Shown here: in pieces, positions 40,467 to 64,000 of the stretch | Position numbering within the stretch: position 1 is the stretch's first letter | Layout of the letters: each line of letters opens with the position of its first letter | Assembly (NCBI GenBank): GCA_963545205.1 | Contig: CAUUHW010000002.1 | Coordinates: forward strand, 220,409 to 284,408 | Source of the DNA: an uncultured Desulfovibrionales bacterium | GTDB taxonomy: Bacteria > Desulfobacterota > Desulfovibrionia > Desulfovibrionales > Desulfomicrobiaceae | Length of the DNA: 64,000 nt | Reading direction: 5' to 3' | The notes under the pieces: generated by a model | What the model was told of the DNA's origin: nothing | The model's input: only the letters and a program-made list of their open reading frames with translations | Databases searched by the model: none | Made by a program: the position numbers and the translations under genes

Positions 40467-40654
40467 CTTACTTCCTGGAAAGTTTGTGTTTGTTGCGCGT
40501 GTTTTTGAACCAATACAAGCAACACGGGAGCCACTTCCAACAAAACCTGTGTGCAAGCCTTTTTCGTAAAAGGAAGCCTGACGGTTCTGCAGCGGCTCCC
40601 ACCTCAACATAAGAGGTTTGAAATTGCCAGCACACGGCTTTCCGGGAAGCAAGG
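40467..40654 (+). ncRNA. ssrS: candidate 6S RNA (ssrS)
   Basis: 188-nt element just 3' of zapA, the classical ssrS neighbourhood. The 5' arm CUUACUUCCUGGAAAGUUUGUGU (40467-89) pairs with the 3' arm ACACGGCUUUCCGGGAAGCAAGG (40632-54), including several G-U pairs that only work on the plus strand. An inner stem GGGAGCC/GGCUCCC and an apical hairpin CCUUUU-UCGU-AAAAGG follow. About 30-nt unpaired tracts on both sides form a central bubble. Confidence 0.6.
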
Positions 40655-40826: not shown

Positions 40827-42383
40827 ATGGGGGAAATCATATTTATCGCCTGTGGCTGCCTGATTAGCGGCGGAGCTATGGGCGTTTTCTTGCAACGCTG
40901 GATTACAGCCAGAGAAGTAGAGGGCTCAACCAAACTCAGTGAAAAAATTCTGGATGAAGCCCGCAAGGAAGCCCAGGCCCATAAAAAAGAAATGATATTG
41001 CAGGGCAAGGACGAACTTTTGCAGCAAAGAAAAGAGTTTGAAGCGGAAGTAAAACTCCAGGAAAAGGAACTGAGAAAACAGGAAAACCGTCTGCAAGACA
41101 AGGAAGAACGCCTGGAAAAACGTCTGGAGCAGATGGCGCAAAAAGAAAATGAGACAGCTGCTCTGGAAAAAAAACTGAGCAAAAATGAAAAAAAACTGCA
41201 GGAAGAGCAGGAAAAAATAGAAGAGCTAATCCAAAAGCAAACCCAGAAACTGGAAGAGATATCAGGCCTGACAGTTGAAAATGCCCGGATCAGCCTGATG
41301 CAGGAAATAGAAAGCCGCACCAGACACGAAGCTGCCAAGATGATGCGCCAGATAGAAGAAGAGGCTAGGGAAACCGCCAACCGCCAGGCGCAAAAAATCC
41401 TGGCCACAGCCATGCAGCGCTACTCCGGTGATTATGCCAGTGAACATACCGTCTCCACCGTAGAACTGCCCAGCGATGACATGAAAGGCCGGATTATTGG
41501 ACGGGAAGGGCGCAATATCCGTTCCATTGAAGCCGCAACCGGTGTAGACCTAATTATTGACGACACTCCTGAAACCGTTGTGCTGTCCTCATTCAGTCCC
41601 CTGCGCAGGGAAATTGCCAAACGCTCGCTGGAAAGGCTGATCAGCGACGGCCGTATTCACCCCGCCCGCATCGAAGACATTGTCCACAAGGTTGAACAGG
41701 AAATGGACATCAAACTACGGGAAATCGGTGAACAAGCCACCTTTGACGTTGGCGTGCACGGTATCCACCCGGAGATTGTCCGTTTACTGGGGCAACTGTA
41801 CTACCGCACCAGCTTTTCCCAAAATGTCCTGCACCATTCTCTTGAAGTTTCTTTTTTATGCGGCATCATGGCTGCCGAACTCGGTCTTGATGTCAAAAAA
41901 GCCAAACGGGCCGGCCTGCTGCACGACCTGGGCAAGGCCGTTGACCACGAAGTGGAAGGACCGCACGCGCTCATTGGCGCGGATTTGGCAAAAAAACACA
42001 ATGAATCCAAAGAGATTATCCATGCTATTGCCGCGCACCACGAAGACGTGCCGCCAAAATCAGCCCTTGCCGTCCTGGTGCAGGCCGCGGACAGTCTTTC
42101 CGGTGCCAGACCCGGCGCGAGAAAGGAACTGCTGGAAAGCTATGTCAAGCGCCTTGAAGAACTGGAGAAAATCGCCACCAATTTTAACGGCGTTGACCGG
42201 GCCTATGCCATTCAGGCCGGGCGGGAAATTCGGGTTATGGTCAACAGCGATCAGGTCAATGACGATTCTATTTTTCTGCTCAGCAAGGATATTTCCAAGG
42301 AAATTGAAGAGAACATGAGCTATCCGGGCCAGATCAGGGTCACAGTCATTCGGGAAAAGCGGGCTGTTGGCATTGCCAGATAA
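40827..42383 (+). CDS. rny: ribonuclease Y
   Basis: N-terminal TM, a K/E-rich coiled coil, KH domain ([17 protein letters not shown]) and HD domain ([12 protein letters not shown]). Confidence 0.95.
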
Positions 42384-43628: not shown

Positions 43629-45065
43629 ATGAAAACTGACTTTCCAAGCTATCGCGGCGAGATGGAATATTGCTGTCTGGAATGCGGGCAACGTTACAGC
43701 GCGGATCAGCTCCTGTACACCTGTCCACAGTGCAGGGGTGTTTTTTTACTTGAAAACACCTGTCAGGAAGAACTGACCCGGACCAGCGCGAAGCAGTGGC
43801 AAGAGCTGTTTGATAAGCGGGCTGCTACCCGCCAGAACAGCCTGCGCGGTATTTTTCGTTTTTACGAACTTATCGCGCCGGTTATGGAAGCGGACGATAT
43901 TGTGTATCTGGGTGAAGGTAACACCCCGATCATTGACGCCGCGCCGGATTTAAGCCAAAAAATCGGCCAGCCCTTTGCCTATAAAAACGACGGCCAGAAT
44001 CCATCCGCCTCGTTCAAGGACAGAGGCATGGCCTGCGCTTTCAGCTATCTCAAACAGCAGGCCCGCATCCACAACTGGGAGCAGATACTGACCGTGTGCG
44101 CCTCTACCGGCGACACCTCGGCGGCAGCGGCCCAGTACGCGGCTTATGTCGGCAAACCGCTGACCTCTGTTGTTCTGCTCCCGCAGGGCAAGGTCACGCC
44201 GCAGCAACTCAGTCAGCCACTTGGCAGCGGCGCGACAGTTCTGGAGATCCCGGGAGTCTTTGACGACTGCATGAAGGTCGTTGAATTTTTGGCTGATAAT
44301 TTTCGCGTGGCTCTGCTCAATTCCAAAAACGCTTGGCGCATTCTGGGCCAGGAATCTTACGCCTATGAAATCGCGCAGTGGTACGGCTGGCAGGTGGCAG
44401 ACAAGGCTGTTTTTGTCCCCATAGGCAACGCCGGAAACATCACAGCGGTTATGAACGGCTTTCTGAAACTCAGGCAACTGGGCATTATTCAGGAACTGCC
44501 CCGTCTCTTTGGCGTACAGTCCAGTCACGCGGATCCGGTTTTTCGCTACTACGACCAGCCACAAGACTCGCGCCGGTTTGCGCCGGTCAAGGTACGTCCC
44601 AGCGTGGCCCAGGCTGCAATGATCGGCAACCCTGTCTCTTTTCCGCGCGTGCGGCATCTGGTCGAGAAGTATCTGGCCCTGGACGGTGATTTCCATGTTG
44701 TGCAGGTTGAAGAACAGGCGATCATGGACGCCATGCTCCTGGCCAACAAACACGGTCATATCGCCTGTACCCAGGGCGGTGAATGTCTGGCCGGTCTGTT
44801 ACGGGCCAGGGAACTTGGACTGATTAAAGGCAGTGAAACCGCCATTCTGGATGCCACCGCGCACAGCCTGAAATTTTCCGGGTTCCAGCAAATGTATTTT
44901 GAGAACACTTTCCCCCCGGAATATGAGGTCAACCCTGACCCACATGCTGTCAATCAGCCGGAACTGGTTCTGGCCCCTGAACGCAAGGCCAGGCTGAGCG
45001 AAAAAGACTTTATTCAGGCTGCGGCGGAACAGATTGTACATAAACTCGGTTTACAGCATAAATAA
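43629..45065 (+). CDS. thrC: threonine synthase with N-terminal zinc ribbon
   Basis: CLECG...CPQCRG ribbon, the PLP lysine motif (NPSASFKDRG) and the long-form ThrC layout. ATG 43629. Confidence 0.88.
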   Translation: MKTDFPSYRGEMEYCCLECGQRYSADQLLYTCPQCRGVFLLENTCQEELTRTSAKQWQELFDKRAATRQNSLRGIFRFYELIAPVMEADDIVYLGEGNTPIIDAAPDLSQKIGQPFAYKNDGQNPSASFKDRGMACAFSYLKQQARIHNWEQILTVCASTGDTSAAAAQYAAYVGKPLTSVVLLPQGKVTPQQLSQPLGSGATVLEIPGVFDDCMKVVEFLADNFRVALLNSKNAWRILGQESYAYEIAQWYGWQVADKAVFVPIGNAGNITAVMNGFLKLRQLGIIQELPRLFGVQSSHADPVFRYYDQPQDSRRFAPVKVRPSVAQAAMIGNPVSFPRVRHLVEKYLALDGDFHVVQVEEQAIMDAMLLANKHGHIACTQGGECLAGLLRARELGLIKGSETAILDATAHSLKFSGFQQMYFENTFPPEYEVNPDPHAVNQPELVLAPERKARLSEKDFIQAAAEQIVHKLGLQHK

Positions 45066-50085: not shown

Positions 50086-50113
50086 GATTACTGCCGCACA
50101 AGCAGATTAAAAC
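50086..50113 (+). repeat. solitary degenerate type I-F CRISPR repeat
   Basis: GATTACTGCCGCACAAGCAGATTAAAAC matches the array repeat GATTACTGCCGCATAGGCAGATTAGAAA at 24/28 positions. One change weakens the Cas6f hairpin. No convincing neighbouring repeat lies at a 60-nt period. Confidence 0.6.
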
Positions 50114-54657: not shown

Positions 54658-54816
54658 TGCTTTTAACCAGCCAAGAGCAGGGATAAGAGTTTCTTACGCC
54701 CGGCAAACGTTATGGATTGTTCTTGTAAAACCATTTCATGTCTGCCATGCTTTTTTCGCTTTCTCCTGATATTTTCCAGAGTCATGACAAATCCGGTTCA
54801 AAAAAGGCAGGACATT

Positions 54817-55797
54817 ATGGACTATATTCCTTCTTCTGATCTGAAAACCATTTTGCATTCCAAACGGGCCAATATCTATTATCTGGAACATTGCCGGGTT
54901 CTGGTCAAAGGCGGGCGGGTGGAATATGTAACAGACGCGGGAAAAGAGCGCCTGTACTGGAACATTCCCATCGCCAATACAACAAGTATTCTGCTTGGAA
55001 CCGGCACCTCGGTTACCCAGGCCGCCATGCGGGAACTGGGAAAGGCCGGAGTACTGGTCGGATTTTGTGGCGGAGGAGGAACACCTCTGTTTACGGCCAC
55101 AGAACCACCTCTTGATGTGCTTTGGTTTTCCCCGCAAAGTGAATACCGCCCCACATCTTATTTGCAAAAATGGGTCAGCTTCTGGTTTGATGATGCCCTT
55201 CGACTGGCAGCAGCCAAAAAATTTCAGTACTCCCGCCTTGCATTTCTTGCCCAAACCTGGACGCGGGACAAGCAGCTCAGGGAAGTCGGATTCAGTGACA
55301 CACTCCTCGTGCCGCTGCTTGAAACAGCTCAAAACGACATGCAGTCTGTAAAAGATGTTACCAACCTGTTAACACTGGAGGGCAGGCTGACCAAAACCCT
55401 GTACCGTCTGGCCGCCGAAACAACAGGTTATGGGCATTTCAGCCGGGGAGAACGCGGAAGCGGCGTGGACGCGGCGAACAAATTCCTTGACCACGGCAAT
55501 TATCTGGCCTACGGACTTGGCGCCACTGCAACCTGGGTGCTGGGTATCCCGCACGGGCTGGCAGTATTGCACGGCAAAACCCGTCGCGGCGGCCTGGTCT
55601 TTGATGTAGCAGACCTGGTTAAAGACGCGCTTGTTCTGCCACTGGCCTTTATCGCCGCTATGCAAGGGCAAAACGAACAGGAATTCAGACAAAGCTGCGT
55701 GGAAATATGTACCCGCCATGAAGCGCTTGATTTTATGGTTGAAACCATAAAGCAGGTTGCGCAGGAAACAGCTTCGCTGCAAGGAAATGCTCCATGA
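54817..55797 (+). CDS. cas1: CRISPR integrase Cas1, type I-F
   Basis: MDYIPSSDLKTILHSKRANIYYLEHCRVLVKGGRVEYV...NIPIANTTSILLGTGTSVTQAAMRELGKAGVLVGFCGGGGTPLF is near-collinear with Pseudomonas aeruginosa Cas1f. The start is chosen by that alignment. Confidence 0.97.
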   Translation: MDYIPSSDLKTILHSKRANIYYLEHCRVLVKGGRVEYVTDAGKERLYWNIPIANTTSILLGTGTSVTQAAMRELGKAGVLVGFCGGGGTPLFTATEPPLDVLWFSPQSEYRPTSYLQKWVSFWFDDALRLAAAKKFQYSRLAFLAQTWTRDKQLREVGFSDTLLVPLLETAQNDMQSVKDVTNLLTLEGRLTKTLYRLAAETTGYGHFSRGERGSGVDAANKFLDHGNYLAYGLGATATWVLGIPHGLAVLHGKTRRGGLVFDVADLVKDALVLPLAFIAAMQGQNEQEFRQSCVEICTRHEALDFMVETIKQVAQETASLQGNAP

Positions 55798-58700
55798 ATA
55801 TTTTGCTTGTCTCGGAGTGTTCAGGCAATGCGCTGGCCCAGACCAGACGTATTCTGGATCAATTTTCCGAACGCCGGGGCGAACGGGTCTGGCAAACCAC
55901 TATCACGCTGGCCGGGCTTGAAACCTTACGCCGCATGCTGCGCCAAAAAGCCCGTAAAAACACGGCGGTGGCCTGTTATCGGATGTACGGCAGCCAGACC
56001 GAACTTTTGTGGATAGTGGGCACTGCCAGCCGTTTCAACGAACATGGAGCAGTGCCTACCAATCGCACAAAACGTGATGTATTGCGCGCAGAAGATGAAA
56101 ACACCTGGCACAGCCGCGAAACAATTTTGCTTTTATCCCGTCTGGCAGCCTTATGGCATGATATGGGCAAATCCTGCGCTCAGTTTCAACGTGTCCTGCG
56201 CTCCACAACTCCTGAGCGTAACCTGATCCGGCACGAATGGATTTCCCTGCGCCTTTTTGAGGCCTTTGTCGGCAATGATGAAAAAGATGAAAACTGGCTG
56301 CAACGCATGGCAGATTTTCAACCTGACTCGGCCGCCAAAACGCTTCAGCGTGTTCAGCAGGATGTGCTGGACAAACTGCCAGACTCGACACTCAAACCCT
56401 TTAAAAAGGATATGCCGCCTTTGGCCAGAGCTATTAGCTGGCTGATTGTCAGCCACCACCGACTGCCAACAAACCCTGAACATGGCTGCACGACTTCCCA
56501 TCTTCAGGCCCTGCCGGAAAGTATTGTCAGAAGATGGAATGAAAGCGGAACTCCGCAACAGCAAGACGCAAAAGAATACTGGAAAATTCCGGCCACTCTT
56601 TTTACCCGCCTTGGCCCGGACTGGCAAAAAGAAGTGCGCAAATGCGCGGCGCGCTTTCTCAAGCATCCGGCGGCAAAAGAGCAGTGTCAGGATACCTTTG
56701 TCCTGCATCTGTCCCGCCTGACTCTGATGCTGGCTGACCATAAGGTCTCTGCACAGGAAACCGGACAGTCCTGCAAGCCCAACAAAACCACCTTGTTTGC
56801 CAATACCGGACGCGACAAAAAACTCAAACAAACACTGGAGGAACATCTTGTGCGCGTGGCGCAGATGTGTGGTCAGATAGCATACGCCCTGCCTGCTGTT
56901 GGGATGGATTTGCCGCGTCTGGCGCATCATCGTGGTCTGCGCCGCCGCTGCAATGATTCCCGTTTTCGCTGGCAGGACAAGGCGGTAGATACTTGCAATG
57001 CTGTTCGTCAGCAACCGGATACGGGTGGTGTTTTTTTACTGAATATGGCTTCAACCGGTTGCGGCAAAACCCTGGCCAATATCCGCATGCTCTATGCCCT
57101 TCAACCGCCAGAACAAGGCATGCGGGCAACATTCGCTCTGGGCCTGCGCGTTTTGACCACCCAAACCGGACGGGAATATCAAAAACGTCTGCATCTCAGT
57201 GATGATGAACTGGCAGTGCGTGTGGGCGGTCTGGCGGCTCAAGAGCTGTACGACCTTTTTTCCGGCGACAGCGCAGCAGGCAAAGAACAGATTGCTGTTC
57301 CTGACCAGCAAAAAATATTTGAAAAAAACTGGCAGAATCTGGCGGAACAGGGTCAGGAATCCGCCCGCGCGCTTTTTACAGATGACGCCCATGTTCTCTT
57401 TGAAGGCAATATGGAAAACCCTGTTCTCAAAAAAATCATTGAGGATGGACAAGCCCGAAAATTTTTATCTGCTCCGATTCTGGCCTGTACTGTAGATCAT
57501 CTGGTTCCGGCTACGGAATCCCTGCGCGGCGGCCATCAGATTCTGCCCATGCTCCGTCTGCTGGGCAGCGATCTGGTTTTAGACGAAATTGATGATTACG
57601 GCCTGGAAGACCTGCCAGCCATTGCCCGCCTGACATATTGGGCGGGTATGCTCGGCTGCCGGGTGCTTGTTTCTTCAGCCACACTACCACCTGCTCTGGC
57701 GACCGGGCTGTTTACAGCCTACAGGGAAGGGCGGGCTGTTTTTGAACGCAATCTGGGTCAAAATCCAGAGACACCTCAACCAATAACCTGTGTATGGGCA
57801 GATGAATTTGGCACGCAGGTAACACAAGCTGATGAACAGAATTTTGCTCCAAAACATAATGAATTTGCCAGCAACAGGGCAGACAGAATAGGCAGAAACG
57901 AGCACCGCAGAAGAGCCAGCCTGCTTGATGTGGAAGCTCTTACCTCGTGTACCTCTAAAGAACTGCCCAAAAAACTGGCCTCTGTATTGCTTGAAGCTGC
58001 CTGCCGCCTGCACGCGGGCAACCATACCTGCGTGGGCAGTCAGCGCGTCAGTTTTGGTTTGCTGCGCATGGCTAATATCAAACATCTTCGCCAGATTGCA
58101 AAGGCATTGGCCAGCCTGGACGCGCCTCAAAACACCCGTATTCATCTGCTGGCCTATCACTCCCGTTTTCCTCTGGCCCTGCGTACAAAAACAGAAAAAC
58201 TGCTCGACCGCTGTCTGAACCGTAAAGACCTGCTGGCGGTATTTAACGAGCCAGAAATTCGCGCCCATTTGCAACAAGCCCCGCACGCCGAGCATATCTT
58301 TCTGGTAATAGCCAGCCCGATCTGCGAGGTCGGCAGAGACTGGGACGCAGACTGGGCGATTGTGGAGCCATCGTCCATGCGCTCATTCATCCAGCTTGTC
58401 GGTCGCATTCGCCGCCACCGCCCGGAGAAATGGGACATCACCAATGTGCTTCTCTGGTCACGTAATTTTAAAGGACTGACAAATTCAAAAGACCCTGCCT
58501 TTTCCCGCCCTGGTTTTGAAACCCGAAAAGGCGGTTCTTTTCCCCTGACCTCTCATAGCCTTCACAACCTGCTTATGCGGGAAGAATATGAACAGCCGGA
58601 CTCCAGACCCCGCCTGCTGGAACGGAAAAATCCCAACCCCAAAGGGAACCTGACAGATCTGGAACACGCCAGGCTGCACCATTTGTTTGTGCCTGAGCCG

Positions 58701-59147
58701 GAACGAAAATTGACCGAACGGGAAAAAAGGGCCGGAAAAACGGCTCAAACAACCCTGGGAGCCTTTTCCTGGTGGCAATACCCGCAAAGTATGCTTACAG
58801 GGCTTTTGCAACAAACCCAGATGTTTCGGCGGTCGAGTCTGCCGGAAATCGAATGCCTGCTGCTCCCTGATGAGAATGAAGAAAAATGGGTACTCACTGC
58901 TGTTCACAAAAACGGTGAAAGTAAGCAGGAAAAAATGCTGAAACGATTAGAAATTGATTGGGGACAGGGAACAGATGCCTGGCTGAACATAGATATTATG
59001 GAAGAACTGCATTCCATTGCAGAACAAACAGACCTGCCCCCTGAAACCTGCGCCCGCAAGTTTTTTACCCTTACCCTACCCCAGCCCAAAGACGAAGGTA
59101 GCGGATGGACATTTAACCCGTTATTGGGTTTTGACAGGAAGAGCTGA
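55794..59147 (+). CDS. cas3: Cas2-Cas3 fusion nuclease/helicase, type I-F
   Basis: Cas2-like N-terminus MNILLVSECSGNALAQTRRILDQFSERRGERVWQT, HD motif (LWHDMGK, LIVSHHRLP), and helicase motifs (ASTGCGKT, LDEIDD, VSSATLP, EVGRDWDADWAIVEPSSMRSFIQLVGRIRRH). ATGA overlap with cas1. Confidence 0.97.
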   Translation: MNILLVSECSGNALAQTRRILDQFSERRGERVWQTTITLAGLETLRRMLRQKARKNTAVACYRMYGSQTELLWIVGTASRFNEHGAVPTNRTKRDVLRAEDENTWHSRETILLLSRLAALWHDMGKSCAQFQRVLRSTTPERNLIRHEWISLRLFEAFVGNDEKDENWLQRMADFQPDSAAKTLQRVQQDVLDKLPDSTLKPFKKDMPPLARAISWLIVSHHRLPTNPEHGCTTSHLQALPESIVRRWNESGTPQQQDAKEYWKIPATLFTRLGPDWQKEVRKCAARFLKHPAAKEQCQDTFVLHLSRLTLMLADHKVSAQETGQSCKPNKTTLFANTGRDKKLKQTLEEHLVRVAQMCGQIAYALPAVGMDLPRLAHHRGLRRRCNDSRFRWQDKAVDTCNAVRQQPDTGGVFLLNMASTGCGKTLANIRMLYALQPPEQGMRATFALGLRVLTTQTGREYQKRLHLSDDELAVRVGGLAAQELYDLFSGDSAAGKEQIAVPDQQKIFEKNWQNLAEQGQESARALFTDDAHVLFEGNMENPVLKKIIEDGQARKFLSAPILACTVDHLVPATESLRGGHQILPMLRLLGSDLVLDEIDDYGLEDLPAIARLTYWAGMLGCRVLVSSATLPPALATGLFTAYREGRAVFERNLGQNPETPQPITCVWADEFGTQVTQADEQNFAPKHNEFASNRADRIGRNEHRRRASLLDVEALTSCTSKELPKKLASVLLEAACRLHAGNHTCVGSQRVSFGLLRMANIKHLRQIAKALASLDAPQNTRIHLLAYHSRFPLALRTKTEKLLDRCLNRKDLLAVFNEPEIRAHLQQAPHAEHIFLVIASPICEVGRDWDADWAIVEPSSMRSFIQLVGRIRRHRPEKWDITNVLLWSRNFKGLTNSKDPAFSRPGFETRKGGSFPLTSHSLHNLLMREEYEQPDSRPRLLERKNPNPKGNLTDLEHARLHHLFVPEPERKLTEREKRAGKTAQTTLGAFSWWQYPQSMLTGLLQQTQMFRRSSLPEIECLLLPDENEEKWVLTAVHKNGESKQEKMLKRLEIDWGQGTDAWLNIDIMEELHSIAEQTDLPPETCARKFFTLTLPQPKDEGSGWTFNPLLGFDRKS

Positions 59148-59159
59148 AAACACTATCTT
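59131..59159 (+). promoter_or_regulatory. possible promoter for the mini-CRISPR, inside the last codons of cas2/3
   Basis: TTGACA (59131-36), N17, then TATCTT (59154-59), about 30 nt upstream of the first pseudo-repeat. Pattern match only. Confidence 0.3.
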
Positions 59160-59187
59160 TCTCACGAAGCAAAAAGCGCGTATGAAC

Positions 59188-59268
59188 CTATTCTGCCGTA
59201 CAGGCAGCTCAGAAAATTAGAGGAAATAAAATTTTCCAAAACCAACTGCCGAATAGGCAGAAAAAGAA
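59188..59268 (+). ncRNA. degenerate two-repeat mini-CRISPR (CreR/CreA-like crRNA-resembling RNA gene)
   Basis: psiR1 is CTATTCTGCCGTACAGGCAGCTCAGAAA (59188-215). The 25-nt pseudo-spacer is ATTAGAGGAAATAAAATTTTCCAAA (59216-240). psiR2 is ACCAACTGCCGAATAGGCAGAAAAAGAA (59241-268). Both pseudo-repeats retain the CTGCC-N5-GGCAG Cas6f hairpin. Confidence 0.7.
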
Positions 59269-59269
59269 T

Positions 59270-59300
59270 TTGACCATTAGAGGGAATAAAATTATATACA
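59270..59300 (+). promoter_or_regulatory. predicted cas8f (csy operon) promoter overlapping a PAM-flanked partial protospacer for the mini-CRISPR
   Basis: TTGACC (59270-75), N17, then TATATA (59293-98). CC at 59274-75 is followed by ATTAGAGGGAATAAAATTATATACA, which matches the pseudo-spacer at 17 of the first 18 nt. AGGAGG at 59311 and ATG at 59323 follow. Confidence 0.55.
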
Positions 59301-59322
59301 TAAACAACAAAGGAGGATGCTT

Positions 59323-60636
59323 ATGCCTGAAAAACAAAACCTTGTTCGCCAGTTACGCAAAATCATTGATGATTTTTTGGCAGCTCGTCTGGCAACAAAA
59401 ACTGAAAAACTCGCCCCAGACGACCCGGCGAGAGAAAACTGGGAAGAAAAATTTTCCCGACCGGTCTGGATTGCCGATGCGGCTCGGAGGGTGAGCTGGA
59501 TACAGGCTGCAACCCATACCATAAAAGCAATCCATCCCGGAGCAAAAGGATCGAACCTGTTCTGCCCGTCACAACGTCTTGTCAGACATGACAATCTGGT
59601 GGGCAGCCATCTTCTTGCCCCGGATTGTGCAACAGACGTGGTCGGCAATGCCGCAGCCCTTGACGTCAACAAATTTCTTACCTTGCGATGTGAGGATAAG
59701 ACACTGTTGCAATGGATGCAAGATGAGAAACAGGCTGTTATTGATGCTCTGGCAAACGAAGCCGCTGAAGCATGGGTAGATGCTTTCCTTGATTTTATCC
59801 GCGAGCCAGAAACATTTGCCACCCATACCCTGGCCAAACAAATCTACTGGCTGGAGGGCAGCGACCCTGCATGCGATGAGCATTTTGTACTGCTCGCACC
59901 TTTGTATCCCAGTTCTCTGGCCCATGCTATATACACGGAAATCCAGGAAGATCGCTTCGGAGAGGCTGCAAAAACAGCCCGCAAAGCCCGAAAAGAAAAT
60001 ATATACTGTGAACAGCCCCTGCACGAATATCCTGATCTGGCAGTTCAGAAACTGGGCGGGACAAAACCACAAAATATCAGCCAGTTAAACAGCGAGCGTA
60101 GCGGTACAAATTATCTTTTCAGCTCTTGCCCGCCGCCTTGGCGCTCACGTCAGATACGCCCGGTTTTCTATCAAGAATCCGCTTTGTCTGCTTTTGCCAA
60201 TCGTCCGGCTATACAGGAGCGGCTTACAAACCTGCGCTTATTTCTGGAAAGCGATCCAGCTCCAATCCTGGCCACCAGAAAAAAACGAGATGCATATGTT
60301 TTGACCATTATCGGTGAACTGCGCCAATATGTAGAGGAATTGCTCTCGCTTGCCCCTGGCTGGACATCCGATCGACGCTGCCGTCTTGCAGACGAGGAAC
60401 GCTGCTGGCTGGATCCCTTTGCCACTGCTACAGACCCGGATTTTTCTGAGCTGTGGACGGACCTGAACTGGGCCCCTGCAATAGAACGGCGCTTTGCCAA
60501 CTGGCTCAATCGCCAATTAGGGCAAGACCTGCCTTTAGGAGATACAGAACACCGCCACTGGGTAGACCTGTTTGATTACCATGTCTGGCGGCAGGCACTC
60601 AAAAAATTCAAAAAAAAGGAGGCTGAGCATGCCTGA
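59323..60636 (+). CDS. cas8f: Csy1 / Cas8f (type I-F large subunit)
   Basis: VWIADAARRVSWIQAATHTIKAIHPGAKGSNLF, DVVGNAAALDVNKFL, QKLGGTKPQNISQLNSER and FANWLNRQL are collinear with P. aeruginosa Csy1. ATG 59323 lies 6 nt after AGGAGG. Confidence 0.95.
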   Translation: MPEKQNLVRQLRKIIDDFLAARLATKTEKLAPDDPARENWEEKFSRPVWIADAARRVSWIQAATHTIKAIHPGAKGSNLFCPSQRLVRHDNLVGSHLLAPDCATDVVGNAAALDVNKFLTLRCEDKTLLQWMQDEKQAVIDALANEAAEAWVDAFLDFIREPETFATHTLAKQIYWLEGSDPACDEHFVLLAPLYPSSLAHAIYTEIQEDRFGEAAKTARKARKENIYCEQPLHEYPDLAVQKLGGTKPQNISQLNSERSGTNYLFSSCPPPWRSRQIRPVFYQESALSAFANRPAIQERLTNLRLFLESDPAPILATRKKRDAYVLTIIGELRQYVEELLSLAPGWTSDRRCRLADEERCWLDPFATATDPDFSELWTDLNWAPAIERRFANWLNRQLGQDLPLGDTEHRHWVDLFDYHVWRQALKKFKKKEAEHA

Positions 60637-61600
60637 TCTTCCTACCTCTGAAGGTTTACTCCTTTTGCCCCATATTCAGATACAAAATGCCAATGCCATT
60701 TCTTCTTCCCTAACCTGGGGATTTCCGTCCATAACCGCATTTGCGGGGCTGATGTGGGCTTTGGAACGGCGCTGCCAGTGCTTGGAACTGCCATTAATTT
60801 TTGAAAGTGTGGGTGTGGTCTGCCATTCGTTTCAAACACAAGTCAGCCATACGGGCTTTCATAATATTTTTTGCCTGACTCGAAATCCACTGGACAAGGA
60901 CGGCAGCTCTGCTTCCATTATTGAGGAAGGCCGAATGCATCTTGATATCAGTCTGCTTTTTGGAGTCAGCGGAACATTCTTAACTGAACCCGAAGAAACA
61001 AAAGCCAGAATCGCGCAAACCATTATGGACATACTTTCCGCCATGCGTATTGCCGGAGGCAGTGTGTTGCCGTCCCGTAGATATTCCCGTTTGCAACCAT
61101 ACTTTTTTTCTATACCAGAAAATGAGGAAAACTCTTTTTTTGACAAACTTCGTTACCAACTCTTGCCGGGATTTACTTTGGTAGAACGCCCAGACTTGCT
61201 TGAAAAACGGCTTGACCTTCTGCGCCAGGAACGACCTGAGGCAACGCCCCTTGATGCCTGGCTGTCTCTTTCCCGTTTTAACTGGAAAGCGACCCAAGAG
61301 AACAGTCCGTCTGATGATAGCGATAGCGCGCCAAAGGTGAAATGGCAACATGACCGAAAAAACGCGGGCTGGATTGTACCCATTCCCTTGGGTTACACAG
61401 CCTTAACCCAAAAACAGGAGGCAGGCACAGTAGAGAGGACCCGCGACCCGAACATTCCGTTTTATTTCGTTGAAAGCGTGTATGGCATCGGAGAATGGAT
61501 TGCCCCGCACAGACTGAACACTATCAAACAGCTTCTCTGGTACGCCAAAAACGAAGAGGGGTTGTTTCGCTGTTACAATTCATACATAAATTTTTTATAG
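60629..61600 (+). CDS. cas5f: Csy2 / Cas5f
   Basis: LLLLPHIQIQNANAISSSLTWGFPSITAFAGL, NPLDKDGSSASIIEEGRMHLDISLLFGV, RLLPGFTLV and GWIVPIPLGYTAL are collinear with Csy2. Overlaps csy1 by 8 nt. Confidence 0.95.
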   Translation: MPDLPTSEGLLLLPHIQIQNANAISSSLTWGFPSITAFAGLMWALERRCQCLELPLIFESVGVVCHSFQTQVSHTGFHNIFCLTRNPLDKDGSSASIIEEGRMHLDISLLFGVSGTFLTEPEETKARIAQTIMDILSAMRIAGGSVLPSRRYSRLQPYFFSIPENEENSFFDKLRYQLLPGFTLVERPDLLEKRLDLLRQERPEATPLDAWLSLSRFNWKATQENSPSDDSDSAPKVKWQHDRKNAGWIVPIPLGYTALTQKQEAGTVERTRDPNIPFYFVESVYGIGEWIAPHRLNTIKQLLWYAKNEEGLFRCYNSYINFL

Positions 61601-63337: not shown

Positions 63338-63425
63338 GATTACTGCCGCATAGGCAGATTAGAAATACAACCAGCTCCCCCACAGATACGAAAAACGGAT
63401 TACTGCCGCATAGGCAGATTAGAGA
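63338..63425 (+). CRISPR. minimal type I-F CRISPR array: 2 repeats, 1 spacer
   Basis: R1 is GATTACTGCCGCATAGGCAGATTAGAAA (63338-365). The 32-nt spacer is TACAACCAGCTCCCCCACAGATACGAAAAACG (63366-397). R2 is identical except ...TTAGAGA (63398-425). The repeat aligns with the canonical I-F GTTCACTGCCGTATAGGCAGCTAAGAAA. Confidence 0.9.
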
Positions 63426-63761: not shown

Positions 63762-64000
63762 AGCTGCTGTCCCTTTTGCCCTCTCAAGAGCAACGATTTG
63801 AGCCCGCCCCCAACAGCTGTTATTCCATACCTACCCGATTAAAGACCGAAAAATAGCTTCCTCCATCCAAAACCAATTCCCCCAATTCTTAATTTTGTCC
63901 ACTTCATTGACAAAGGAAAGAACAACCATATAAGCAGAAAAAAGAAAACATTCGCTATCACTTTGTGTTTTTTATGGTTTATATTGCCAATAAGCTGTAT

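Follow-up and report, generated by a model that had tools for sequence, protein, structure and literature searches.

What is a short, degenerate CRISPR (short palindromic repeats, clustered and regularly interspaced) doing between cas2/3 and cas8f of a type I-F1 system? The question is raised by a 64-kb stretch of DNA (the window, by which we mean the whole stretch that was analysed) from an uncultured Desulfovibrionales-like bacterium of the Desulfobacterota. This assignment rests on AtpA, which shares 84–86% identity with the AtpA proteins of Desulfovulcanus, Desulfoplanes, Desulfomicrobium and Desulfonauticus, and on an RNase Y gene in the window. By NCBIfam the window carries a complete type I-F1 system: cas1, cas2/3, csy1–4 and a one-spacer CRISPR. 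The gap between cas2/3 and cas8f measures 175 nucleotides (nt) and contains, on the strand of the cas genes, a degenerate mini-CRISPR (59188–59268) made up of a first pseudo-repeat, a pseudo-spacer and a second pseudo-repeat (psiR1, psiS and psiR2). A preliminary description of this DNA had proposed an autoregulatory RNA of the CreR kind. Our analysis supported that proposal, and we consider it very probable that the mini-array encodes a CreR-type guide RNA that represses csy1–4 by means of the system's own Csy complex.

The features on which the argument turns are given below. All lie on the + strand and, except for the predicted RNA and the last entry, were read directly from the sequence.

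59188–59215, +: psiR1, the first pseudo-repeat, CTATTCTGCCGTACAGGCAGCTCAGAAA; also matched by Rfam CRISPR-DR4
59216–59240, +: psiS, the 25-nt pseudo-spacer (guide), ATTAGAGGAAATAAAATTTTCCAAA
59241–59268, +: psiR2, the second pseudo-repeat, with a degenerate handle, ACCAACTGCCGAATAGGCAGAAAAAGAA
59208–59260, +: predicted mature RNA of 53 nt resembling a CRISPR RNA (crRNA): 8-nt handle, 25-nt psiS, 5 nt (ACCAA) and a 15-nt hairpin
59270–59275, +: −35-like hexamer TTGACC; its last two bases, CC (59274–59275), are the I-F protospacer-adjacent motif (PAM)
59276–59300, +: protospacer-like target, ATTAGAGGGAATAAAATTATATACA
59293–59298, +: −10-like hexamer TATATA, inside the target and exactly 17 nt after TTGACC
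59311–59316, +: AGGAGG, the Shine-Dalgarno (SD) sequence of cas8f, whose ATG is at 59323
59131–59159, +: promoter-like TTGACA-N17-TATCTT, candidate promoter of the mini-array, overlapping the cas2/3 stop codon; promoter scan, 10 of 12 matches

Both pseudo-repeats retain the hairpin recognized by Cas6f. In psiR1 it reads CTGCC-GTACA-GGCAG (59193–59207) and is followed by the 8-nt 5′ handle CTCAGAAA (59208–59215); in psiR2 it reads CTGCC-GAATA-GGCAG (59246–59260). When the two were folded singly, each yielded the expected 5-bp stem and 5-nt loop, with energies of −8.0 kcal/mol for the local hairpin of psiR1 and −8.6 kcal/mol (z = −5.0) for that of psiR2. The motif CTGCCG-N3-AGGCAG was found at exactly four sites in the 64 kb, these being the two pseudo-repeats and the two repeats of the genuine array. 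Rfam CRISPR-DR4 gave a + strand match of 30.4 bits to psiR1 over positions 1–28, compared with 29.8 and 25.3 bits for the genuine repeats, and because this match runs from end to end, the orientation and boundaries of the mini-array are fixed independently of the preliminary description. For psiR2 the hairpin portion only was matched, at 15.8 bits. At the Rfam gathering threshold there was no match in the mini-array region; CRISPR-DR4 emerged only when an E-value threshold was used.

We also considered whether the element is simply a canonical I-F array, and rejected this. The identity to the genuine repeat is 20/28 for psiR1 and 19/28 for psiR2 (68–71%), the spacer is 25 nt instead of 32 nt, and the hairpins recur with a period of 53 nt as against 60 nt. 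Cas6f cleaves each repeat at the 3′ base of its hairpin, and a canonical crRNA is 60 nt long. It may be noted that psiS holds a 5-bp hairpin of its own, GGAAA-TAAAAT-TTTCC (59222–59237), which is predicted in the mature RNA, and that an analogous AGAAT...ATTCT is present in the psiS of an orthologous locus (L004, see below). Such a hairpin may be a chance occurrence in AT-rich sequence, or may affect the availability of the guide.

The target begins immediately after the CC. It agrees with psiS at 17 of the first 18 positions and at 20 of all 25 (matches at 1–8 and 10–18; mismatches at 9, 19, 21, 22 and 24). The mismatch at position 9 is due to the G at 59284, and pairing is lost beyond position 18. 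On re-reading of 58900–59500, the coordinates that had been given for psiR1, psiS, psiR2, TTGACC, the target, TATATA, AGGAGG and the ATG agreed base for base. The intactness of both Cas6f hairpins was borne out by the motif counts, CRISPR-DR4 and the single-repeat folds, and the contrast of a 25-nt pseudo-spacer with a genuine spacer of 32 nt by the array at 63338–63425; the match of 17/18 and 20/25 beside CC was reproduced on re-counting.

When the 54-nt stretch that separates psiR2 from cas8f was shuffled 2,000,000 times, CC followed by the seed (positions 1–5, 7 and 8) appeared 91 times, and 17 or more matches out of 18 beside CC did not appear at all (0/2,000,000; analytic estimate ~3.5e-8). 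In the entire 64-kb window the PAM plus seed occurs once, at the target site. As a control, the distinct cas3–cas8f gaps of the window, of its orthologues and of the I-F loci from a metagenome scan were read from their hairpins (CTGCC/GGCAG) in both orientations. PAM-plus-seed matches numbered 7 among the 89 hairpin-anchored readings, each of them in the orientation in which the handle ends in AGAAA.

The complementarity was then followed across four lineages, namely the window and the loci L002, L004 and L006, for which the Cas8f identities are 100, 71, 67 and 65%, respectively (the window protein is 100% identical to the homologue P0001). All three orthologues carry a co-directional mini-array with a CC-flanked partial match:

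P0002 (Cas8f 71%; loci L002, L003 and L019): co-directional mini-array; in L002 the guide is ATTAGGATAAAGATA and the target ATTAGAATAAACATA, with mismatches at positions 6 and 12 only
P0003 (Cas8f 67%; loci L004 and L005): co-directional mini-array; in L004 the guide is ATAAGAATAAAATAATTCTAT and the target ATAAGAATATAATAATTATAT, with mismatches at positions 10 and 18
P0004 (Cas8f 65%; loci L006–L011): co-directional mini-array; in L006 the guide is ATAAGGGTGAAGAAAT and the target ATAAGAGTGAATAAAT, with mismatches at positions 6 and 12 only

In the P0002, P0003 and P0004 lineages the cas3–cas8f gap is 159–165 nt long and is laid out as in the window. The order common to the four lineages is a hairpin, a CTYAGAAA handle (CUYAGAAA in RNA), psiS, a second hairpin, CC and the partial match. 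The second hairpin begins 25–32 nt past the end of the handle, compared with 37 nt in a canonical array, and the target begins directly after CC, at 59–61 nt from psiS and 43–54 nt before cas8f. The −35-like hexamer ends in the PAM CC in the orthologues as well, with TTGACC in L004, TTTACC in L002 and TTGCC in L006. The psiR2 hairpin is kept in all four lineages; the psiR1 stem of L006 is altered to CTATC/GATAG with its pairing retained.

Guide and target were found to change together. Across the four lineages, positions 3, 7, 8, 13 and 14 are altered in guide and target alike, while at positions 6 and 12 the two drift independently. Cognate guide and target pair at 13–14 of 15 pairing positions and non-cognate combinations at 9–12 of 15; of all 24 permutations, the cognate one fits best. 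Pairing ends at about position 15–21 in every lineage. The co-variation thus amounts to a comparative read-out of I-F pairing, with positions 1–5, 7–11 and 13–15/16 constrained and positions 6 and 12 free. Positions 6 and 12 have been reported as not contributing to base-pairing in I-F complexes (PMC10120712). The autoregulatory proposal of the preliminary description is supported by this comparison of pseudo-spacer and promoter, in which five positions change jointly.

A closer view was provided by L166–L169, close relatives that fall in the same 90% cluster. Their psiS is identical to that of the window, and variation in the target is confined to position 9 (in the window) and position 12 (in L166). 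L167–L169 have A at position 9, giving a perfect 18/18, and the only change in L166 is T to C at position 12. Since the close relatives L167–L169 carry A and pair at 18/18, the G at 59284 is a strain-specific polymorphism of the target. In total, guide and self-target are intact together in at least eight independent contigs from four lineages.

How might such an RNA act? Its transcript would start at TTGACA-N17-TATCTT near the end of cas2/3, or would arise by read-through from cas2/3. The former was the sole sigma-70-like site called by the promoter scan in 58900–59500. Its TTGAC is conserved in the orthologues, which is not independent evidence because these bases lie within the conserved Gly-Phe-Asp codons of Cas3. 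A scan for + strand terminators found none between cas2/3 and cas8f, which makes read-through from cas2/3 plausible. The psiR2 hairpin was considered as a terminator and rejected as such, the only terminator-like call there being on the minus strand.

Cas6f would cut behind each hairpin, releasing a crRNA-like RNA of ~53 nt with the handle CUCAGAAA, a 25-nt guide and a 3′ hairpin, and this RNA would be loaded into the Csy complex (Cas8f-Cas5f-Cas7f-Cas6f). The complex is expected to recognize the CC that ends the −35-like TTGACC, 8 nt downstream of the mini-array, and to open a partial R-loop of ~18 bp over the −35/−10 spacer and the −10 box, 24–47 nt upstream of the cas8f ATG. RNA polymerase would thereby be blocked and csy1–4 repressed. 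Recruitment of Cas2/3 in type I-F requires a complete R-loop. As pairing ends at about position 18 of the normal 32, we propose that Cas2/3 is not licensed and that the chromosome stays uncut. Such an arrangement would constitute negative feedback, in which a drop in free or active Csy complex, whether by dilution, by competition from crRNA or by anti-CRISPRs, would release the promoter. Because the genuine array has a single spacer, the crRNA-like RNA would compete with one crRNA species only. If this is correct, the system senses the level of its own effector, and inactivation of the Csy complex by anti-CRISPRs or decoy RNAs would lead to its over-production.

Some further consequences are conceivable. 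The guide could be derived from Cas6f cleavage of the cas1–cas2/3 read-through RNA, in which case the adaptation mRNA would be severed from the effector mRNA and the supply of guide would be tied to transcription of cas2/3. The polymorphisms at target position 9 (window strain) and position 12 (L166) might set the level of repression. That the loci form a toxin-free natural clade of type I-F CreR, with the PAM in the −35 box, a co-directional guide, target polymorphisms that tune repression and a reach into the Desulfobacterota, is put forward only tentatively, and taken as a whole we find it rather doubtful.

Several observations weigh against repression of csy1–4 by this RNA. The cas8f promoter TTGACC-N17-TATATA is a guess from the sequence. 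The preliminary description had spoken of a good sigma70-like promoter; the hexamers and their spacing are present as described, but the promoter scan, which required T at the last −10 position, did not call the pair, for want of that final T. Its placing of this promoter about 25 nt upstream of both AGGAGG and the ATG was right for the ATG (24 nt from the end of the −10-like hexamer) but not for AGGAGG, which is only 12 nt away. The counterpart in L004 is TTGACC-N16-TATATA, and L002 and L006 show no clear conservation of the −10. Binding and repression could be weakened by the mismatch at position 9 of the window target, just past the 8-nt seed region. When the whole precursor was folded, the structure of minimum free energy did not show two local hairpins, the 5′ arm of psiR1 being joined instead to the 3′ arm of psiR2; long-range pairing between repeats is common when repeat arrays are folded in silico. 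The search for further targets covered only the 64 kb of the genome. Moreover, the element is dispensable, as related loci do without it: in P0005–P0007 (L012–L018; Cas8f 63–65%) the cas3–cas8f gap is just 14–18 nt and has no mini-array, and in L170 the intergenic region (1278–1405, 128 nt) is unrelated to that of the window and lacks I-F hairpins.

Three other explanations were weighed against this evidence. The crRNA-like RNA could be the antitoxin (CreA) of a CreTA-type addiction module, repressing the promoter of a small toxin (CreT or CreP) and not primarily the cas genes. The experimentally dissected I-F examples to date do carry a toxin in the same slot, and the distant loci L026, L035 and L061, described below, have 260–277 nt from target to cas8f. 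The space here is far smaller: only 22 nt separate the end of the target from the cas8f ATG in the window, and the distance from target start to cas8f is 43–54 nt in all four lineages. On either strand of 59148–59345 cas8f has the sole SD-preceded start codon, no GC-rich hairpins other than the two repeat hairpins were found in the region, and the start of Cas8f has no consecutive proline codons, its first codons differing among lineages. We rejected a CreT toxin downstream of the target for this clade, since nothing fits into 59301–59322 and there is no second SD-preceded start. The preliminary description had favoured CreR over CreTA because the gap is too small for a toxin gene, and its judgement stands; a CreTA-type module appears very unlikely here.

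If instead the hairpins acted at the level of RNA only, Cas6f would cut a cas1–cas2/3–csy read-through transcript, for uncoupling, mRNA stabilization or insulation, and the DNA match would have no role. Read-through is plausible given the lack of a + strand terminator between cas2/3 and cas8f, cas3 and csy have to share a transcript in relatives that lack the intergenic region, and a read-through transcript would inevitably be divided if Cas6f cut at both hairpins. What this explanation leaves unaccounted for is the PAM-flanked complementarity and its co-variation. We regard it as improbable, if the least so of the three, and RNA-level cutting is better seen as a further effect of the element than as a rival account. 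Finally, the element could be a decaying array remnant or a local duplication without function, the similarity of spacer and target being a relic of duplication in AT-rich DNA. The pseudo-repeats are just 68–71% identical to the genuine repeat, the starts of spacer and target lie ~60 nt apart, which is one CRISPR unit, relatives without the element exist (P0005–P0007, L170), and repeat debris occurs in the locus (a solitary repeat at 50086–50113). Yet the target is out of register for a second spacer, starting 7 nt past the position expected from psiR2. Register-exact complementarity beside CC in four lineages with Cas8f identities of 65–71% would be unexpected under neutrality, as would five co-varying positions combined with free drift exactly at 6 and 12; both hairpins are preserved, in L006 with a compensatory change of the stem. 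A functionless relic is the least probable of the explanations considered.

The distribution of the element bears on its age. From the pairwise Cas8f identities, P0003 and P0004 group with P0005–P0007, and P0001 and P0002 fall outside. This grouping makes a single loss in the P0005–P0007 branch the most economical history, and we infer that the element is older than the divergence of these Cas8f proteins to ~65% identity. In the sister clade L012–L018 the mini-array and the internal promoter are missing jointly, so that the two are present or absent together as a module of ~160 nt; the same contrast of presence and absence is found in the literature between P. aeruginosa PA14 and YL84. In L170 the 3′ end of cas3 and the 5′ end of cas8f are nearly identical to those of the window, and cas8f is split into open reading frames (ORFs) of 125 and 306 amino acids; L170 may be a decaying or recombined locus.

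Four distant metagenomic I-F loci, L026 (1078–1200), L035, L061 and L093 (Cas8f 46–49%), have a mini-array that runs antisense to cas3 and cas8f. Each shows an I-F hairpin with a CTYAGAAA handle and a CC-flanked target with mismatches solely at positions 6, 12 and 18; the target, too, is on the strand opposite to the cas genes. Their gaps are 430–470 nt (L026, L035 and L061) and 178 nt (L093). In L026, L035 and L061 the target is 260–277 nt upstream of cas8f, leaving room for a toxin, and L026 has an SD-like motif and GC-rich hairpins between target and cas8f. From their sequences, the layout of these antisense loci looks like that of CreTA.

A contig scan with Cas8f returned just one irrelevant match, an Aeromonas locus at 34% identity. 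Neither the window Cas8f nor P0001 led to a contig by exact look-up, but P0121, a member of the cluster, did. Phage-borne mimics of the Cracr kind were sought by the handle-plus-seed pattern; it gave 67 viral matches, of which two adjoin I-F hairpins, both in ordinary arrays. The target-like pattern gave at least 120 matches in viral sequences, and among the matches listed none adjoins an I-F hairpin. BLAST of the intergenic region found no match in phages and one in plasmids, from Legionella longbeachae, which is an ordinary I-F CRISPR array.

The genes of the system and its genuine array are as follows.

54712–55797, +: cas1 (type I-F); NCBIfam TIGR03637 Cas1f, E = 7e-150
55794–59147, +: cas2/3 fusion (Cas3f); NCBIfam TIGR02562 Cas3f, 1097 bits, full length
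59323–60636, +: cas8f (csy1), gene 1 of the effector operon; NCBIfam TIGR02564 Csy1, E = 5.9e-103
60629–61600, +: cas5f (csy2); NCBIfam TIGR02565
61613–62641, +: cas7f (csy3); NCBIfam TIGR02566
62610–63209, +: cas6f (csy4), encoding the endoribonuclease that would cleave the mini-array transcript; NCBIfam TIGR02563
63338–63425, +: genuine CRISPR array of two 28-nt repeats and one 32-nt spacer, TACAACCAGCTCCCCCACAGATACGAAAAACG; Rfam CRISPR-DR4, 29.8 and 25.3 bits

Other repeat-like sequences were noticed around the locus. About 500 nt 3′ of the genuine array, 63921–63942 (AACAACCATATAAGCAGAAAAA) is 77% like psiR2 and has no stem. A solitary repeat unit, GATTACTGCCGCACAAGCAGATTAAAAC, at 50086–50113 (+) is identical to the genuine repeat at 24/28. 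It lies 4.6 kb 5′ of cas1, past three minus-strand genes, and its hairpin has lost the uppermost base pair. Either a stand-alone repeat unit or what is left of a second I-F array upstream could account for it. For the sequence 3′ of it, CC plus the seed was matched once in the window, at 44063, no more often than expected by chance. Elsewhere in the window, a 6S RNA was found at 40469–40652 (+; Rfam RF00013, 88.9 bits), just 5′ of the gene for RNase Y (40827–42383).

Elements of this class have been published. Shmakov et al. 2023 (10.1101/2023.03.03.530964 / PMC10120712) found repeat-like sequences beside cas3 in 25–29% of the I-E, I-D and I-F1 flanks examined, together with mini-arrays whose spacers show, beside CC, a partial match to the cas8 promoter with mismatches at position 6. 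Their I-F1 mini-array between cas3 and cas8f was validated in P. aeruginosa YL84, where it has a short spacer with mismatches at 6 and 12 and where the promoter was repressed with Cascade alone and without interference (PMC10120712). The P. aeruginosa I-F element has since been reinterpreted as toxin-carrying (10.64898/2026.06.02.729485). That the I-F PAM is 5′-CC on the protospacer strand is agreed (PMC10120712; 10.1101/2024.01.05.574328; 10.64898/2026.06.02.729485). The name CreR comes from Liu et al. 2023 (10.1101/2023.03.10.532045), whose experimental cases are of types I-B, I-E and V-A, I-F candidates appearing in a supplementary figure only; in those other subtypes autorepression was relieved when the effector was depleted or blocked, including by Acr (anti-CRISPR) proteins. 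Toxins are known from several I-F loci. In CreA1/2–CreT1/2 of P. aeruginosa (10.64898/2026.06.02.729485) the minimal CreT combines an SD and a GC hairpin with a 15-nt ORF that contains two proline codons; in CreA–CreP of A. baylyi ADP1 (10.1101/2024.01.05.574328) CreP is a 324-bp ORF ~120 bp downstream of the target; and an I-F CreTA with a toxin is described for Acinetobacter WCHA45 (PMC10097628).

With I-F CreTA and CreAP the window element shares the slot between cas2/3 and csy1, the psiR1–psiS–psiR2 design and a CC-flanked partial match. Their psiS is 20–30 nt long, and that of bacterial I-F CreA/CreR is typically 23–27 nt with a median of 25 (2026 preprint), the length found here. The window element differs from these modules in that their toxin gene lies 3′ of the target, whereas in the window the putative targeted promoter is followed at once by cas8f, and a second SD, ORF or hairpin is missing. 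Like L026, L035, L061 and L093, it has an I-F hairpin, a CTYAGAAA handle and a CC-flanked match; those elements are antisense and that of the window is co-directional. Autorepression and toxin control are confounded in the best-studied I-F loci, those of P. aeruginosa and Acinetobacter, and for this reason a compact, toxin-free locus could help to separate the two.

The resemblance to the I-F1 mini-arrays of Shmakov et al. lies in two repeat-like units, of which the downstream one is more degraded, a short spacer and a CC-flanked partial match before the Cascade operon; mismatches tolerated at 6 and 12 are shared with YL84. Those mini-arrays are transcribed opposite to cas3, unlike the present one, which is co-directional with cas2/3 and cas8f, has its PAM inside the −35-like hexamer and comes from a Desulfovibrionales-like host instead of a gammaproteobacterium. 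In common with CreR of types I-B, I-E and V-A there is a degenerate mini-CRISPR, partial complementarity to the promoter, here a putative one, of an effector gene and no associated toxin, the present case being known from its sequence. The window element therefore adds no new mechanism to this published class and is a well-supported new example of it, extending the phenomenon to sulfate-reducer-like Desulfovibrionales. What is particular to it is that it is co-directional, extremely compact with the PAM inside the −35-like box, toxin-free and hosted in the Desulfobacterota, the class of mechanism being unchanged.

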